The position numbers were made by a program, and so were the translations under genes. The notes under the pieces are model-generated. The model saw nothing but the letters and a program-made list of their open reading frames with translations, was not told the DNA's origin and did not search any database. Shown piece after piece: positions 27,320-52,032 of a stretch of 64,000 nt of DNA. The stretch comes from Escherichia phage 121Q: sequence record NC_025447.1; one strand, written 5' to 3'. Numbering within the stretch: the stretch's first letter is position 1; every line of letters begins with the position of its first letter.

Positions 27320-28108
27320 ATGAGCACTATCGATGAACTGATTCAACGGAATTCAAAATATTACCAACCATCAGAAATTGTGGATAACATTACTAAATCT
27401 GAGTTTGGACCGAACACACGCAAACTCATTCATGTAATGTCACGTGATGGCTTTAAATGTGATTGTTGTGGTGAATCAAATGTAGTATTCACTTTACACA
27501 AGCACAGTACTAAAGAACGTTATAAATTCAGACCTTATGTACTTAAAGGGAAACGCCTTGTACGCATGACGTTAGACCATAATGTACTGGACTGTCTTCA
27601 GGGCGGTAATGATAAAGAGAACATGACTGCATTGTGTGAAGATTGTAACGCATTACGCCAGCATAAGTTTGCTGAGTACAGTGAGTTTAAACACTGGTAT
27701 CATAACGCGGATCGTTCAATCGAGCCTGACGTTAACTACTGCTTCATTGAGTACATTAAGAATGCCAAAGATACATACATTCTTAAATCAATGTCACCTA
27801 TTACCGTGTTTCCTGAGAACCTATTCACTACATTAAAGAATAGTTTTATTGTCGGTGATATTGATGCATTCAAGTATTTTGACAAAGGTGCAAAACATTT
27901 TGAAATTCAATGTCTTAGTACTGCACTATGTAAACTCATTAAAATTTACATAAAAGAGTATTTGGGTATTGACAATGTACGTGTACCAGAGTATACTTTT
28001 TCTATTGAATTCGATTGTGAATCAATTAAAGAGTTTGGAATTCTTTTCAATAAACAAATAGAACTTGCAATTCAAAACGAAATCAAGTACTATACTACTA
28101 ACATTTAA
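27320..28108 (+). CDS. HNH endonuclease (putative homing endonuclease)
   Basis: CDCCG ... TLDHNVLDCLQGGNDKENMTALCEDCNALRQHK matches the HNH catalytic motif. Confidence 0.7.
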   Translation: MSTIDELIQRNSKYYQPSEIVDNITKSEFGPNTRKLIHVMSRDGFKCDCCGESNVVFTLHKHSTKERYKFRPYVLKGKRLVRMTLDHNVLDCLQGGNDKENMTALCEDCNALRQHKFAEYSEFKHWYHNADRSIEPDVNYCFIEYIKNAKDTYILKSMSPITVFPENLFTTLKNSFIVGDIDAFKYFDKGAKHFEIQCLSTALCKLIKIYIKEYLGIDNVRVPEYTFSIEFDCESIKEFGILFNKQIELAIQNEIKYYTTNI

Positions 28109-45336: not shown

Positions 45337-45852
45337 ATGACACGCATTAACTTAGTACACGTTAAAGAACTTGCTGACCAACATCTGATGGCTGAATATC
45401 GTGAACTCCCACGTGTATTTGGTGCTGTACAAAAACACGTTCAAGCACGTAAGCGTGTACGTGATTTCAAAATTAATAGTACTTATCTGTTAGGTTCAGG
45501 TCATGTGACATTCTTTTACGACAAGTTATTGTACTTACAGAAGCGTCATATTGATATTGTCAACGAATGTCTGCGTCGTGGTATGAAGATTCAAAACACT
45601 GAAGTAAACGACATTAGCGGCTTCCCTGCTGAGTTTTGTAATGACTACGTACCAACGGAGTCAGAGATTAAAATGTCTCGTGATCGTTTGATTGAGAAGC
45701 TCCAGATGAAGCCTACGTGGTATAAGTTTACTGATGTTGAATGTCCACAGTACGTTAAAGATATGCAGAACGTAAGTAGTAAGAACGAATCTAGTACTGA
45801 TATGTTCGACGAAATTGAAGAACAAATCAAAGATGAAATGAATAATTATTAA
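45337..45852 (+). CDS. denV: endonuclease V (pyrimidine-dimer DNA glycosylase) homolog
   Basis: N-terminal about 130 aa closely match phage T4 DenV as recalled (MTRINL...[21 protein letters not shown]...KRVRDFKI...[10 protein letters not shown]...PTWYK); extra acidic C-terminal tail; not alignment-verified. Confidence 0.85.
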
Positions 45853-45856
45853 AGGA

Positions 45857-45877
45857 AAGGGTTGACTTCGGTTACAC
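45857..45877 (+). promoter_or_regulatory. degenerate copy of the stem-loop cassette
   Basis: GGGTTGACTTCGGTTAC: 5' half conserved, 3' half diverged. Confidence 0.3.
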
Positions 45878-45890
45878 AAAGGAACATAAC

Positions 45891-46085
45891 ATGTTATTAG
45901 TATATTCAACGCGTTTCTGGATTTCTTTTATTGTACTATCGCTAATCGGCTTCGGTTTGAGTATACTCTTTTCGTGGGATGAATTGGGTACATGGTATTA
46001 TGAAGTCCCGTGGTACATGAAGATAGCTCCTTGTTATGCGGCATTGTTCGTGTCATTCCTTATTGTTGTCTTCAGCGAGGATTAG
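45891..46085 (+). CDS. small membrane protein
   Basis: ORF track; two hydrophobic segments. Confidence 0.4.
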   Translation: MLLVYSTRFWISFIVLSLIGFGLSILFSWDELGTWYYEVPWYMKIAPCYAALFVSFLIVVFSED

Positions 46086-46191
46086 TTGATGTAGTATGTG
46101 CTACACCAAAGTATTTGGATATTTTAGATATAAACATTGACACCTGTTATATCTTTCTGTATTATGTACATCACCAAATGAGGAATACAAC

Positions 46192-46551: not shown

Positions 46552-46560
46552 CATAAAGGG

Positions 46561-46596
46561 TTGACTTCGGTCAGCCCTTTTTGCTATAATTATTTC
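46561..46596 (+). promoter_or_regulatory. stem-loop terminator overlapping promoter (PeSL-like cassette, canonical copy)
   Basis: AAGGGTTGACTTCGGTCAGCCCTTTTTGCTATAATTATTTCATCAA. Confidence 0.6.
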
Positions 46597-46616
46597 ATCA
46601 ACACAAGAGGTAACAA

Positions 46617-46856
46617 ATGAAACTATCTTTTATACGATTAGCTGAATTCTTCGGTACTGATATCATTACTTTACAACAAATTGCAGACAATACTTCATTA
46701 AGTATACAAGAAGTACTTGACTTAGATGTAATTCAGTGCGATAATACTTCAATCGATTTCAAAGAAGGTCTTGTCGAAAAAGATAAGATTCAGGCTAAGA
46801 TTAATGGTGCTGGACGGGTTCAGTACTGGAAAGGTATATTATCAAATTCAATTTGA
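46617..46856 (+). CDS. hypothetical protein
   Basis: ORF track. Confidence 0.4.
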   Translation: MKLSFIRLAEFFGTDIITLQQIADNTSLSIQEVLDLDVIQCDNTSIDFKEGLVEKDKIQAKINGAGRVQYWKGILSNSI

Positions 46857-46899
46857 AATTTTTTGTTATTCATCATATGATAATGAATGGGAACCATAA

Positions 46900-48363
46900 A
46901 TGTATAAAGTATATCGTTCAATTGAAGTTGAAAATGCATTAAGCTTGGCAAAAAGTGAAGAAGCATTTAGAATTTCGTTATTCATTCTTCGTGAAAAGCA
47001 TCCACAATTGCCAATTCCTGATTCATTTGATCAATTGGAGCAGGATACTAATACAGAATGTGATGAAAGTCTGTTGGGATTAATTCGAAATCCAAAGACC
47101 AAAGCTAAGTTCTATCTTAAAATTTGTAAAATTTGTGCAAATGATGTTCAATTGCATGGTTTGGGTGTGTATATTATTGCACAATCGTCATATTTGAATT
47201 CAATAATTCCATGTGGTTGTAGTGAGATACCAAAATGGACTCGTTATCAATATATTATTCGAATAGAAAGAAAAATTTCAAAAACTGGAAAGAAATTATT
47301 ATCAATACCAACTGGTATAATTAAAAGTAATACATATAAACCAACTCTTGTATGTGAACATCACCCAGATGAACTCATGAACAGTGCAACTATAAATGGT
47401 ATTTTATTTGGTTCGAATGGTACAAATGATGGATGTGTTAAATGTGGGAATGAAAGAAAGAAACAGTATCATCGTGAAAGTAATAACGGATTGGAAAATC
47501 ACATTAACGAAATAATGAATACTGGTAAGTTTCATCCAAAGACCACGTTCAAGCGTAGTGATACAGTTAATGATTATGGGAGATTTAGTAAACTTGTATA
47601 CTCATGTCCAATTTGTGCAAACGATGAATATACAAAAAATGGTTTATGTACTGGTGAATTTGAGCAAGAAATGCACACACTCAAACAGGGGCATTTAAGT
47701 TGTCGCTGTACTGGCGGGTTTCGTTGGACAAAAGAACAGCGTGAATATCAAATTAAAAAAGAATTATGTAATCGCTCAACTGATGAAGTGATGTTTACAT
47801 TTATTGGCTGGGACGGTGAATACACTAATTCCCGTAGTGTGTTTTTATATTCACGTAGTGATAGTTCAATTCAACAAAAAATTAATATTGCAGATTTTTT
47901 CAGTTTTGAATATGGTTTTTCAATGTATAATGAGTACGGGTTTAAGAAAAACAAACCTACACGTTCATATATGAACGTTGATCAAACAAACGAATCGGAT
48001 AAATTCGGAATAACCCAACAGGGTAACAGTATCAAACCCCGACTTAAAAAAATTAACAAATCTTTTTTAGAAGAGTATGGTGTTGATAATTTTTGGACTA
48101 ATGTATTAGTTATTTTTTTTCACACCGAAGAAGGGGGATTTTTGGCATCGGAGTTGGAAACACAAGTCCATACTGTTGCATTGTGTGGAAAACCACATAA
48201 AAATATTGGCTATTATAAAAGAGGTGATGGTTATACTGAAACATACAACAACATACATCGTCAAAATGTAATTGAAGTAATAAAACAATTCTTAGCCAAA
48301 CATGAAGGTGAGTACATTATTGAACGTGATATTAATGGTATTTTTGGTGAAGTAATTTTATAA
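46900..48363 (+). CDS. Cys-rich hypothetical protein (487 aa), possible zinc-binding nuclease-like protein
   Basis: Repeated Cys pairs (CKICAND, CGCSEIP, CVKCGNE, CPICANDEY, CRCTGG); no catalytic motif identified. Confidence 0.5.
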   Translation: MYKVYRSIEVENALSLAKSEEAFRISLFILREKHPQLPIPDSFDQLEQDTNTECDESLLGLIRNPKTKAKFYLKICKICANDVQLHGLGVYIIAQSSYLNSIIPCGCSEIPKWTRYQYIIRIERKISKTGKKLLSIPTGIIKSNTYKPTLVCEHHPDELMNSATINGILFGSNGTNDGCVKCGNERKKQYHRESNNGLENHINEIMNTGKFHPKTTFKRSDTVNDYGRFSKLVYSCPICANDEYTKNGLCTGEFEQEMHTLKQGHLSCRCTGGFRWTKEQREYQIKKELCNRSTDEVMFTFIGWDGEYTNSRSVFLYSRSDSSIQQKINIADFFSFEYGFSMYNEYGFKKNKPTRSYMNVDQTNESDKFGITQQGNSIKPRLKKINKSFLEEYGVDNFWTNVLVIFFHTEEGGFLASELETQVHTVALCGKPHKNIGYYKRGDGYTETYNNIHRQNVIEVIKQFLAKHEGEYIIERDINGIFGEVIL

Positions 48364-48383
48364 AATAAAAGAGGTTAATTAAA

Positions 48384-48710
48384 ATGAAAAAGTTAATGTT
48401 AGTTATGTTAATGTGTTTATCAACAACAGTGAATGCAAAAAATGAATCATCAACTACTTGTAAATCTTCAAAAACTGATACGATTTATCAACTGTATTTG
48501 GATGTTTCAACAAAAACTGCTAAAATTGATGGAAAGAAATTTATGTTCGAAAGTCAAGAAGTTTTTAAAGACGGGAGTGGTTCATATACTATTTTTTCAA
48601 ATGATAAATTAAATCAAAAATTAAAAGTTTTTGTTATAAAACCAAATAAGATAAAATATATAATTACCTATAATGGTAAAAATATTGATATGGGTAATTG
48701 TGTGTATTAA
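48384..48710 (+). CDS. hypothetical secreted protein (signal peptide)
   Basis: N-terminus MKKLMLVMLMCLSTTVNA. Confidence 0.45.
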   Translation: MKKLMLVMLMCLSTTVNAKNESSTTCKSSKTDTIYQLYLDVSTKTAKIDGKKFMFESQEVFKDGSGSYTIFSNDKLNQKLKVFVIKPNKIKYIITYNGKNIDMGNCVY

Positions 48711-48722
48711 ATATGTTTATAA

Positions 48723-48757
48723 AAAGGGTTGACTTCGGTCAGCCCTTTTTGCTATAA
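48723..48757 (+). promoter_or_regulatory. stem-loop terminator overlapping promoter (PeSL-like cassette, canonical copy)
   Basis: AAAAAGGGTTGACTTCGGTCAGCCCTTTTTGCTATAATTATTTCATCAA. Confidence 0.6.
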
Positions 48758-48786
48758 TTATTTCATCAACTGATGAGGATAACGAA

Positions 48787-49557
48787 ATGACCAGAGAAGC
48801 ACGCAGCATTCAAATTCAGAAAAACTTCAACTCCATGATGGTTGCTCTTGAGTGTTTGCTCGATGATAGCAGTACTGTAAAAAGTATGGTTGTCAGTGGT
48901 GCTCCTGGTGTTGGCAAGACTTACACCCTGTCTAAACGCCTCCAGAAAGCTCATGACGCAGCAGAATGGAACGTAGCTACCATCAGTGGTAAAATGACTA
49001 CTCTGGCTCTGTACGAAGTTCTGTACAAGAATCGTCATAGCACCAACGTATTAGTACTGGACGATATGGACAGTATTTTTGATTCTGAAGACGGTATGAA
49101 CCTGCTCAAAGCAGTACTGGATAGTGGTAAGCGTACCGTGTCTTATATGACTAGCTCTAAGTACTTGAGCACTAACGGAATTCCTAATAGCTTTGATTTT
49201 AATGGTCGCATCGTATTCATTACTAACAAAGATTTAGCGTTAGATGCTAAAGCTAAAACTAAAATGTCTGCTCATTATGCTGCTCTTATGTCTCGTTCTG
49301 TGTACGTGGATTTACAGATTCAGACTAAAAGTGATATCATGATTCATATTGAGAACGTGATGAATCAGACTAACATTTTAGAATCTAAGGGTATTAACCG
49401 TAATGGTAGTAAAGCAATTCTGAACTGGATGTTGAAGCACGAAGATTCTCTTCGTTCACCTTCACTGCGTATGCCACTGTTGATTTCGGCAGTATATAAC
49501 AACAACCCATACGATTGGGAAGAACAGTGCGAAAACTTGTTCCTTGAGAAAATTTAA
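48787..49557 (+). CDS. P-loop NTPase (AAA-like ATPase)
   Basis: Walker A GAPGVGKT and Walker B-like VLVLDDMD read from the product. Confidence 0.6.
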   Translation: MTREARSIQIQKNFNSMMVALECLLDDSSTVKSMVVSGAPGVGKTYTLSKRLQKAHDAAEWNVATISGKMTTLALYEVLYKNRHSTNVLVLDDMDSIFDSEDGMNLLKAVLDSGKRTVSYMTSSKYLSTNGIPNSFDFNGRIVFITNKDLALDAKAKTKMSAHYAALMSRSVYVDLQIQTKSDIMIHIENVMNQTNILESKGINRNGSKAILNWMLKHEDSLRSPSLRMPLLISAVYNNNPYDWEEQCENLFLEKI

Positions 49558-49622: not shown

Positions 49623-49964
49623 ATGCGTGAGTTTTTTGAATCTAATATAATGCTTGGTATCACACTGATATACATGTTTGTATTCTTGTTTTATCATTCA
49701 ATTGTAATTAGTCTTTGGTATTTTAAAAGGAAAGTTGTTTTTAAATTGTATTCATATAATAATGTATTCTTGGTTGTATATAGCATTATACAAGGTGGAT
49801 TTATTTTATTTGGTGTGATGACATATGTGATTTACATGTTACAAATTGATAACACACCACACATTACACAATATGTTGTGTTTTCAGGACTAATCGTCTG
49901 GTTATTGGTGTGTACTATGTACTTTATTATTAAAGCTCGTGATAACTTTAAATGGGGATTCTAA
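49623..49964 (+). CDS. small polytopic membrane protein, tandem paralog 1
   Basis: ORF track; related to next copy (…FFESNIMLGITLIYMFVF… vs …FFKSDTMISITLIYLFGF…). Confidence 0.45.
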   Translation: MREFFESNIMLGITLIYMFVFLFYHSIVISLWYFKRKVVFKLYSYNNVFLVVYSIIQGGFILFGVMTYVIYMLQIDNTPHITQYVVFSGLIVWLLVCTMYFIIKARDNFKWGF

Positions 49965-50302
49965 TGTTAGAATTTTTTAAATCAGATACAATGATTAGTA
50001 TTACTTTGATTTATCTTTTTGGTTTTTTCTTTTATCATGCACTAGTTGTAGTACTATGGTATTTTAAAAAGAAAATTGTTTTTAAACTGTATCCAGTGAG
50101 GAATTCATCACTAGTTCTTTACACACTTGTTCAAGGTTTGTTTGCAATTGTTGGTCTTATGGCACACTTAATTTATTGTGCTAATCCTCACTTGAACTCA
50201 ATCTCACAATATATTGTATTCTTTGGATTGTTCATTTGGTTAGTTGCATACTTAATCCATCTCATTATTCATGGTAGAGATAAAATTCGCGGAGACTTCT
50301 AA
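49955..50302 (+). CDS. small polytopic membrane protein, tandem paralog 2
   Basis: ATG at 49955; ends HGRDKIRGDF. Confidence 0.45.
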   Translation, partial: GILMLEFFKSDTMISITLIYLFGFFFYHALVVVLWYFKKKIVFKLYPVRNSSLVLYTLVQGLFAIVGLMAHLIYCANPHLNSISQYIVFFGLFIWLVAYLIHLIIHGRDKIRGDF

Positions 50303-50649
50303 TGTTTGAAGCTTATCTTGAGTTTTTAAGGAGTAGTCCAGTTGCACATTCACTTGCAGGGATTATTCTAACAACTTATGTATCATTTTGGGTAGTTATG
50401 TTTCTAGGATGGTATTTTAAACGACAATTCTATAAACGTAATGGTGAAGATTTTATGAATTCTGTCATTAATCAATCGTTGTTTGCATCAACATTGATTG
50501 CATGTATTGTAGCAACACTCACAGGAAAGGTACTACCAGCTTTTTCCGCAGTTTACGGCACACTTGGGATGATATGTTTAACTTTTATATTGACCATTAA
50601 AATTTGTTGTGTTATGATTGAACTTCGAAATAAGATACCGGAGGAATGA
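50302..50649 (+). CDS. small polytopic membrane protein, tandem paralog 3
   Basis: ORF track; ends ELRNKIPEE. Confidence 0.45.
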   Translation: MFEAYLEFLRSSPVAHSLAGIILTTYVSFWVVMFLGWYFKRQFYKRNGEDFMNSVINQSLFASTLIACIVATLTGKVLPAFSAVYGTLGMICLTFILTIKICCVMIELRNKIPEE

Positions 50650-50984
50650 TGGAGTACTTTATTGATTTACTGCCGTGGTATATGAAAGTTAGTACCATGT
50701 ACTATATTATTAGTGCTGGATTCTACTTTCTGATGTGGTTCTTTAAACGACCAATTTCAGTATTCATCGCTGATAACATGCTGCAATTAAAATTACACGC
50801 ATGGTTTGGTATGGCGATGATTATGCCTATTATTCACTACTCAATGATTAGTAGAGGTTTCCGTTCTAATGGTGAACCAATTGTATTAGTATTCTATTGG
50901 GGTTCAACTATTGCATATGTAAGTTTGTTGTTGTTCCCAGTCGTTCATAAGTTACGTGCTAAAGTTCCTGATGCGAGGTACTAA
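50646..50984 (+). CDS. small polytopic membrane protein, tandem paralog 4
   Basis: ORF track; ATGA overlaps. Confidence 0.45.
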   Translation: MMEYFIDLLPWYMKVSTMYYIISAGFYFLMWFFKRPISVFIADNMLQLKLHAWFGMAMIMPIIHYSMISRGFRSNGEPIVLVFYWGSTIAYVSLLLFPVVHKLRAKVPDARY

Positions 50985-51300
50985 TGGATATAGTAACATT
51001 GATTTACACGTTGTATTCATTCTATTTCATTATGTGTTGGGTTGGATTTTTATTTGTACTCAAGATGTTTGATTATGTTGAAAAACAGATAAAAGAATTT
51101 TGTATTCCTTTTATCGGTTCAACCATTATTAGTGTTTCTTGTGTGTATTTTTTTGGTTTTTGATCCACCAGATAACACTGCAATGATTGACTTGATGTTA
51201 CTACCAACAACTGTTACTTTTTTATGTAGTCTGATGCCGCCGATTAGCCGTGGACTAACAGAATTTAGACGCAATCAAAAGCGTAAACGAGGGATGTAAT
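50984..51300 (+). pseudogene. membrane-protein paralog apparently disrupted by a frameshift
   Basis: 59-codon N-terminal ORF (MDIVTLIYTLYSF...) stops at about 51163; a second frame continues to ...RRNQKRKRGM, matching the C-terminus of the next paralog. Confidence 0.3.
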
Positions 51301-51668: not shown

Positions 51669-52031
51669 ATGAACGGGATAGAATTATCTTTCGTTGGTCA
51701 ATTACTAGTAATGGCGTATACATTTATCTTCTCACTGAATGCATTCGTGTGCATTGGGAAGTACTTCCATAAGCGACCATTATCAAATATATATGATGTA
51801 ATCCAAAAGAGATATAGTCCAGCATATACTGTGTTGGGTACAGTATTCAATTTTGGTTTTATTGTATTAATAATTGGACTGTTCACATCCTCTTTGAATA
51901 CAATAACCTTCGGTCTTATGATATGTTCATTGGTATTAGCCGTAATTATATGTTGTTTAGTACTGCACCTTGTGGTACTATTGTATATAAAGATCTCTGA
52001 AATCCACCAACGTTTGGGTATGAGGAAATAA
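51669..52031 (+). CDS. small polytopic membrane protein, tandem paralog 7
   Basis: ATG at 51669; track ORF 51606-52031. Confidence 0.4.
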   Translation: MNGIELSFVGQLLVMAYTFIFSLNAFVCIGKYFHKRPLSNIYDVIQKRYSPAYTVLGTVFNFGFIVLIIGLFTSSLNTITFGLMICSLVLAVIICCLVLHLVVLLYIKISEIHQRLGMRK

Positions 52032-52032
52032 T

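Follow-up and report, generated by a model that had tools for sequence, protein, structure and literature searches.

The 64,000-nucleotide stretch of Escherichia phage 121Q DNA (NC_025447.1) analysed here, hereafter the window, carries a gene for a cysteine-rich protein of 487 amino acids (aa), which we read, at a probability of about 75%, as a free-standing homing endonuclease gene of the class that joins CapR zinc fingers to a T5orf172-like nuclease of the GIY-YIG superfamily. The class as such has been described before (Netter 2021; Barth 2023). What we observe are the identities of the domains, the fold and motif residues of the C-terminal part and the states of the slot that the gene occupies, whose junctions stay fixed from one phage to the next; cleavage, homing and the identity of the target are suggested by the family and by this comparative pattern. 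A first-pass annotation, made from the sequence alone, had considered the product homing-endonuclease-like or nucleic-acid-binding, and this view is strengthened by the CapR match (E = 2.6e-23), PHROG 681, ICP1 ORF165, the GIY-YIG fold and the slot polymorphism, while clear homology to a non-nuclease family did not appear.

The window, AT-rich at ~34% GC, is from an Asteriusvirus jumbo coliphage. DNA round the 487-aa gene shares 97-98% identity with Escherichia phage UB; for the flanking genes, identity to other Asteriusvirus jumbo phages of ~350 kb (PBECO4, G17, Sharanji, phAPEC6) is 91-99%. On the + strand of the window the 487-aa open reading frame (ORF) ranks second, behind one of 503 aa, so it is indeed among the largest plus-strand products, as had been remarked at first pass.

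Domain architecture of the 487-aa protein

Cysteine makes up 3.1% of the protein (15 residues) as compared with 1.8% over all window ORFs of at least 100 aa, among which no second case of more than three close Cys pairs was found. The earlier count of at least five repeated C-x2-C pairs holds for their number, which is exactly five (CKIC76-79, CGC105-107, CVKC179-182, CPIC236-239, CRC268-270), but not for their kind: only three are C-x2-C and the other two are C-x-C. Their similar local contexts, on the other hand, are genuine, both CxxC...CxC units being internal repeats (BLASTP E = 5e-5) with a 22-nucleotide (nt) DNA repeat of 86% identity in common. Paralogues of the gene were not found within the window by tblastn. 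Gene and domains lie as follows.

46900-48363, + strand: 487-aa homing-endonuclease-type gene (zinc-finger DNA-binding array plus GIY-YIG-fold nuclease), ATG start
47041-47223, + strand: CapR-type zinc finger 1, aa 48-108; C76-x2-C79, 25 residues, C105-x-C107; Pfam E = 5.7e-9, 36.5 bits
47317-47454, + strand: middle finger, ~aa 140-185; C152-x2-H155...C179-x2-C182; aligns with the homologs' DUF723-like 'LxCxxHG...GCPxC' module
47506-47712, + strand: CapR-type zinc finger 2, aa 203-271; C236-x2-C239, 28 residues, C268-x-C270; E = 2e-12, 47.5 bits
47779-47934, + strand: degenerate fourth finger, aa 294-345; aligns with the homologs' 'KFxxxCxxHG...GxxCxxC' module
47938-48360, + strand: GIY-YIG-fold nuclease domain, T5orf172-like, aa 347-487

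The CapR homology domain (PF21817) is the sole significant family in a Pfam scan of the whole protein (E = 2.6e-23, 82.4 bits, cutoff 24.2), and its two separate copies pass the gathering score even when scanned alone (36.5 and 47.5 bits). Both display the CxxC...CxC motif of CapR, with spacers of 25 and 28 residues where the founding alignment has 24-26 residues between the Cys pairs (PMC8096241). It is through these CxxC...CxC cysteines that CapR, the PLE repressor, was shown by experiment to bind DNA, and Cys mutation abolishes the binding; CapR fingers are also present in ICP1 T5orf172 homing endonuclease genes (PMC8096241).

Alignment with 18 database homologs gives a family order of CapR finger, DUF723-like finger, CapR finger, DUF723-like finger and nuclease. 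In the 487-aa protein the likeness of the C152...C182 stretch to DUF723 is one by alignment only, the Pfam hidden Markov models for DUF723 and DUF4379 having no match in it; in the homologs and in gp306 of phage PBECO4 (see below) DUF723/DUF4379 matches are weak or precomputed. The second DUF723-like module (the fourth finger) has had every Cys and His ligand replaced, its fold is still confidently predicted by AlphaFold2 (predicted local distance difference test, pLDDT, 83-94), and a piecewise scan picks up a weak CapR match (E = 0.005) at ~aa 294-320. Given these finger assignments, the five Cys pairs translate into about three predicted zinc sites, with one relic finger besides. The previous idea of multiple zinc-binding modules was thus right in substance, except that there are about three such sites and not five, at which the protein would be expected to bind zinc.

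The C-terminal domain belongs to the GIY-YIG superfamily. It has the beta-beta-alpha-beta-alpha core fold and the residues that go with it, namely a Tyr in strand 1 (Y357), a Gly in strand 2 (G370), an Arg in helix 1 (R381) and the catalytic Glu in helix 2 (E420), with E447 in a T-E-T (TET) motif; the helix-1 His/Tyr of GIY-YIG was not identified in this domain, which is also the case in Odn. G370, R381, E420 and E447 are invariant in 19 of 19 aligned homologs and Y357 is conserved inside this nuclease subfamily. Consistent with this, a profile made from the family alignment picks up 1ywl (UPF0213), a GIY-YIG protein, at E = 0.007, and the motifs of the two line up. Pfam T5orf172 (PF10544) sits at the equivalent position in three of the 19 homologs (P0013, P0015, P0017), and hhalign leads in a chain from our nuclease subfamily to a second set of homologs, group D (E = 3e-5), and from group D to the T5orf172-positive group (E = 9e-6). 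As the link to T5orf172 is transitive only, we call the domain 'GIY-YIG fold, T5orf172-like' and do not count it as a strict T5orf172 member. The T5orf172 domain of Odn is a proven nuclease, the activity of which needs the equivalent Glu (E180A) (PMC8263062). The subfamily stands out by extra sequence inserted after helix 2 and ahead of the TET motif, and by a strikingly conserved C-terminal tail of 19 aa, EGEYIIERDINGIFGEVIL. The isolated C-terminal domain matched no Pfam family, and a whole-protein sequence search against PDB chains returned noise only (E > 0.3); a divergent nuclease subfamily is documented here which current Pfam models miss.

Relatives of the whole protein point in the same direction. 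PHROG 681 'endonuclease' matches over its full length (E = 1e-77), and by tblastn there are matches in 340 phage records, the commonest by first organism word being Vibrio, Escherichia, Aeromonas and Klebsiella phages, with several rows labelled 'putative homing endonuclease' and multiple copies in many genomes. ICP1 ORF165, itself annotated as a putative homing endonuclease, is 32% identical over aa 57-315. Among 110 viral structure matches in BFVD the UB orthologue already bears the name 'CapR homology domain-containing protein', the protein is 99% identical among the window, UB and a metagenomic copy, and a distant homolog is a free-standing gene in a 119-kb phage-like contig. Separately, a non-nuclease Cys-rich protein (metal chaperone, Kazal-like domain) was considered and rejected, the respective Pfam matches being far below threshold.

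A variable slot with fixed junctions

The gene lies in an insert between two backbone genes, together with a short ORF downstream.

46617-46856, + strand: 79-aa backbone gene (phrog_34150), left flank of the insertion site
46835-46856, + strand: divergent left junction, from the alignment of alleles
46842-48721, + strand: variable insert without counterpart in G17, from the homology break against G17
48384-48710, + strand: 108-aa ORF, signal-peptide-like N-terminus MKKLMLVMLMCLSTTVNA, 23.5% GC
48787-49557, + strand: 256-aa P-loop/AAA-like backbone gene (phrog_1250), right flank, conserved in all relatives examined

Homology to G17 (98.75% identity) ends at 46841 and resumes (97.6%) at 48722, the first base of a terminator-promoter cassette dealt with below, and the insert is poorer in GC (29.8%) than its flanks (36.6% and 34.3%). 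The 79-aa gene is 96-99% identical in relatives up to 46834-46841. Beyond this, GGTATATTATCAAATTCAATTTGA is found in the window and UB, as opposed to GGAGT(T/A)TTAAGTAA in all remaining alleles, the empty site among them; solely in these two are the last codons of the 79-aa gene recoded (GGT ATA TTA TCA AAT... as against GGA GTT TTA AGT AAT...), with the protein sequence largely kept (G-I-L-S-N as against G-V-L-S-N). We regard 46835-46856 as a possible target region that was recoded or co-converted. In the alignments all occupants of the slot start directly after ...TTAAGTAA and stop at the downstream cassette, the junctions being identical throughout. Slot contents in the phages compared are these.

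UB and the window: 487-aa gene plus 108-aa ORF
PBECO4: 379-aa gene (gp306), downstream ORF of 75 aa
G17 and Sharanji: unrelated 372-aa gene, PHROGs 'homing endonuclease' and 'HNH endonuclease'
SHEFM2K: 474-aa gene, only the G17 C-terminal domain shared
phAPEC6: 628-aa gene, PHROG 681
Ecwhy_1: 447-aa gene
WPEC5: frameshifted remnant from the nuclease subfamily of the window gene, annotated as five short coding sequences
SD-15_S21: empty; the 79-aa gene runs directly into the cassette, ...GGAGTTTTAAGTAA / AAAAAGGGTTGAC (the stroke marks the junction)
SP27: whole cassette-to-cassette unit lacking, a single cassette instead

The slot therefore has at least six occupant types (at least five besides the window gene), one decayed allele and one empty state. 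PBECO4 gp306 is chimeric in that its first 91 aa are G17-like (42% identity) while over the last 141 aa it shares 61% identity with the window protein, PBECO4 DNA being collinear with the window from 48082 onward. The occupants of the G17 type and of SHEFM2K (L003 5247-6365 and L007 1156-2580) have a common C-terminal domain with the motif ...PYDFYI...LFEYDGSNHF.... For the G17-type occupant Pfam and PDB sequence searches were without a match and only the PHROG 'homing endonuclease'/HNH families were hit; judging by a D...E-x-D-G-x-x-H motif, it resembles homing nucleases of the Vsr/PD-(D/E)xK type. The 108-aa ORF, which has no Pfam or PHROG match, accompanies nuclease genes of the window type at their 3' end: it is there in UB, is truncated by a frameshift to 75 aa in PBECO4 and is absent from G17 and WPEC5. 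Possibly the homing endonuclease gene carries it as cargo.

Homing endonuclease genes are expected to pass through a cycle of invasion, decay, loss and re-invasion. At this locus, alleles and their presence vary at one fixed site between near-identical flanks (97.6-98.8% to G17), an empty site exists, and signs of invasion, decay and loss can be seen in the WPEC5 fragments and in the chimeric PBECO4 allele with its truncated downstream ORF. A fixed junction, alternative nucleases, chimeras, a decayed copy and an empty site, taken together, fit the homing-gene cycle.

Terminator-promoter cassettes

Two near-identical cassettes flank the region, and further copies are dispersed upstream.

46555-46610, + strand: left terminator-promoter cassette; hairpin GGGTTGAC-TTCG-GTCAGCCC plus T-run, -35 TTGACT at 46561-46566, extended -10 TGCTATAAT ending at 46590
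48723-48778, + strand: right terminator-promoter cassette; shared right boundary of all slot inserts and promoter of the downstream gene
34695, 37936, 38119, 39696, 40781, 45276, 46558 and 48726, partial at 45856-45872, + strand: dispersed cassette copies; core GGGTTGACTTCGGTCAGCCC, UUCG loop

In each of the two cassettes an 11-bp stem capped by a UUCG loop forms a hairpin (-18.6 kcal/mol, z = -5.7 by folding), with a T-run after it; a consensus terminator scan did not list this hairpin despite its strength in folding, and the G17 annotation calls the same cassette a terminator. The -35 box TTGACT lies inside the hairpin and is followed by an 18-nt spacer and the extended -10 element, which makes for a near-consensus sigma-70 promoter. 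The left one probably drives both the 79-aa gene and the endonuclease gene, between which no terminator was found. The Shine-Dalgarno of the 487-aa gene, TGGGA, appears weaker than the AGAGGT/GAGGA of its neighbours.

The gene had been described at first pass as bracketed by two identical cassettes in the manner of an inserted module. Identity applies to their first 48 nt (95% over 56 nt), but what they enclose are three ORFs (79, 487 and 108 aa) and not the 487-aa gene alone, and the cassette is a dispersed element. With eight copies in the window at up to 3 mismatches, all on the + strand between 34.7 and 48.7 kb and with 0 expected by chance, we regard it as a dispersed regulatory element of the backbone and not as the end of an insert. 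As to the module, its right end does adjoin the right cassette and SP27 is without the whole unit, but the left end lies ~230 nt past the left cassette, where the 79-aa gene ends. Cassettes as mobile-element ends, considered as the main explanation, were rejected as such in view of the dispersed copies together with a left boundary of variation inside the unit. Apart from this, the cassettes appear to divide the early-gene region into small transcription units.

Relation to known systems

The closest systems are the putative homing endonucleases of the T5orf172 family in ICP1 (Gp165/ORF165, Gp174, Gp121, Gp53, Gp130; Netter et al. 2021, Barth et al. 2023). In these homing endonuclease genes the DNA-binding part consists of repeated CapR/DUF723/DUF4379 fingers, likened to 'beads on a string', and domains shuffle between the genes (Barth et al. 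2023, PMC10448857, where DUF4379 appears once in print as DUF4397). The gene reported here resembles them in its N-terminal repeated CapR CxxC...CxC fingers mixed with DUF723-like ones and followed by a C-terminal nuclease of the GIY-YIG superfamily, and in being free-standing in a lytic phage, variably present among isolates and with domains shuffled between alleles. Unlike them, it is carried by an E. coli jumbo phage (Asteriusvirus) and not by a vibriophage, its nuclease is of a rare and divergent subfamily without a direct Pfam T5orf172 match but with the helix 2-TET insertion and the 19-aa tail, and one of its fingers is ligand-less.

CapR of the Vibrio cholerae PLE satellite, the founder of PF21817, has the same CxxC...CxC zinc-finger DNA-binding domain, yet is a single-domain repressor of 15.5 kDa without nuclease, whereas the 487-aa protein combines two CapR copies with a nuclease domain. 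Odn (ICP1 Gp88) likewise couples a modular DNA-binding domain to a T5orf172-type nuclease with conserved catalytic Arg and Glu, the activity of which has been shown biochemically; it differs in that its DNA-binding domain is RepA_N-like and aimed at the satellite origin, and in that it is no homing element and has no zinc-finger array. I-TevI and the Seg proteins are built on the same principle, their GIY-YIG catalytic domain being joined to a DNA-binding region of modular make-up with a small zinc finger in it, and Seg genes are free-standing, intergenic and home between related phages with co-conversion of flanking markers. In I-TevI/Seg, though, the nuclease is N-terminal (reversed domain order) and the DNA-binding modules are NUMOD/helix-turn-helix, not CapR. 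With the GIY-YIG nucleases SLX1 and HIGLE (identity 13-15%) the resemblance is that of the fold alone, not of family or biology, as these are eukaryotic and structure-specific in DNA repair, with SLX4 as partner and a RING/PHD finger.

Proposed homing and alternative explanations

How the gene might spread can be envisaged as follows. Early transcription, jointly with the 79-aa gene, would start from the sigma-70-like promoter of the upstream cassette (46561-46590). The 'beads-on-a-string' array, made up of two CapR fingers, one C-x2-H...C-x2-C finger and one relic finger, may then recognise a long asymmetric DNA site, which the C-terminal GIY-YIG-fold domain (Y357, R381, E420) would cleave. 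The target is most likely a rival or empty allele of the same locus in a co-infecting relative, around ...GGAGTTTTAAGTAA / AAAAAGGGTTGAC..., and recombinational repair from the carrier genome would transfer a copy of the gene, along with the linked 108-aa ORF, to the genome that was cut. The carrier itself, we propose, would be protected because its site is split by the insert and the left half is recoded.

Several points weigh against a homing endonuclease. Cleavage and homing by the 487-aa protein are what we infer, and according to Barth et al. 2023 (PMC10448857) neither is proven for any CapR/T5orf172 homing endonuclease gene of ICP1. PF10544 is unmatched even at E = 1, be it with the whole protein or with the isolated C-terminal domain, a direct hhalign comparison of the nuclease subfamily with the PF10544-positive group gave no match, and the subfamily is rare, a phmmer search with the C-terminal domain finding 8 representatives among 1.84 billion proteins, which is too few for a deep profile. 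The ligand-less finger could mark beginning decay. Since the 79-aa gene is absent from SP27 and hence dispensable, the usual association with an essential target fails on the left side. Identical junctions, moreover, could come from ordinary, nuclease-free recombination in conserved flanks.

Decay leads to an alternative which we consider unlikely, namely that the protein is a domesticated or decaying derivative that binds DNA via its zinc fingers without homing, either as a regulator (as with CapR or I-TevI autorepression) or on its way to a pseudogene. CapR is a DNA-binding repressor derived from this homing-gene class and binds a -35 element (PMC8096241), and the 487-aa gene is placed between two promoter cassettes; the loss of all zinc ligands in one finger, a nuclease domain too divergent for the Pfam model, the truncated 108-aa ORF of PBECO4 and the fragmented WPEC5 allele would suit decay. 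Set against this, nothing interrupts the 487-aa ORF, which is 99% identical in window, UB and metagenomic copy and keeps the full nuclease domain with Y357, G370, R381 and E420 conserved across the subfamily, when known domesticated forms such as CapR are without any nuclease domain (PMC8096241). An arrangement in which the protein serves, with no self-copying, as a targeted weapon against competing phages, satellites or host DNA has a precedent in Odn, which acts on PLE origins and in which a T5orf172 domain with a borrowed DNA-binding domain forms a phage-protective nuclease (PMC8263062), and swapping of DNA-binding domains is evident in the slot. We think it hardly likely here, the gene being missing from most close relatives and unrelated nucleases being found at the exact same junction, which is what one expects of site-specific selfish elements and not of a defence function under conservation; there are, besides, both a decayed copy and an empty site. 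Weapon and homing roles are at any rate compatible, as marker exclusion of rivals is a by-product of homing.

The mobile unit might also be the whole module from cassette to cassette (79-, 487- and 108-aa ORFs), moving by recombination between the 48-nt repeats with the Cys-rich protein as a mere passenger. That the cassettes are perfect 48-nt direct repeats and that SP27 has a single cassette in place of the whole unit, flanked on its left as the left copy is and on its right as the right copy is, speaks for such a scenario, which nevertheless strikes us as very improbable: the SP27 state is simply explained by deletion between the repeats, the 79-aa gene stays in seven other relatives, in which only the part from its last codons to the right cassette varies, and the cassette, of which the window has eight close copies, bears the annotation of an ordinary terminator.

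Returning to a homing endonuclease gene as the preferred explanation, a more far-reaching version can be put forward tentatively, even if we doubt that it holds as a whole. In this version the slot would be a homing 'battleground' where endonuclease genes with at least two unrelated nuclease domains, the GIY-YIG/T5orf172-like one and that of the G17/SHEFM2K type, repeatedly displace one another at an identical junction and swap modules, with the window allele representing a previously unrecognised GIY-YIG subfamily marked by the EGEYIIERDINGIFGEVIL tail and equipped with a cargo gene for a secreted protein. If true, the locus could give the first direct experimental demonstration of homing by an endonuclease of the CapR/T5orf172 class, a task to which it is suited because occupied, empty and decayed alleles are at hand in cultivable E. 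coli and Salmonella phages.

Taken alone, the 487-aa gene is one more phage homing endonuclease gene, and the value lies in its slot context. The CapR/T5orf172-like class, familiar from ICP1-like and T5-like phages, now takes in E. coli jumbo phages, and the slot offers a convenient natural system of cultivable near-isogenic phages for asking whether the class homes, what is recognised and how zinc-finger arrays are re-targeted. Class homing, recognition and array re-targeting are stated as open questions in Barth et al. 2023 (PMC10448857).

Other features of the window

Upstream of the 487-aa gene and at the far side of the slot, the window has further features of note.

27320-28108, + strand: 262-aa ORF with two CxxC and one CxC, full-length match to PHROG 35175 'HNH endonuclease' (E = 2e-188)
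45337-45852, + strand: homologue of T4 endonuclease V (pyrimidine-dimer glycosylase, denV)
49623-51163, + strand: tandem array of five paralogous small membrane-protein ORFs (113, 116, 115, 112 and 59 aa)

The 262-aa ORF is a second, unrelated gene of the homing-endonuclease type in the window. Yet another variable endonuclease site is seen 1.6 kb upstream of the 487-aa gene, where UB (L001 1253-1656) has ~400 extra bases that are absent from the window at ~45270, lie directly upstream of the denV homologue and include an 'HNH endonuclease' ORF (L001 1483-1677). The denV region varies in other relatives too: PBECO4 is without window positions 45741-46131, corresponding to the denV 3' end and a 64-aa ORF, and the SD-15_S21 annotation has the denV homologue fused to the 119-aa gene downstream of it, giving 259 aa in all. 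Copies in the membrane-protein array are 76-77% identical in DNA and their number varies among relatives. At ~52000-54000 the GC skew changes sign and long ORFs pass from the + to the - strand, which marks a boundary of divergent gene blocks.

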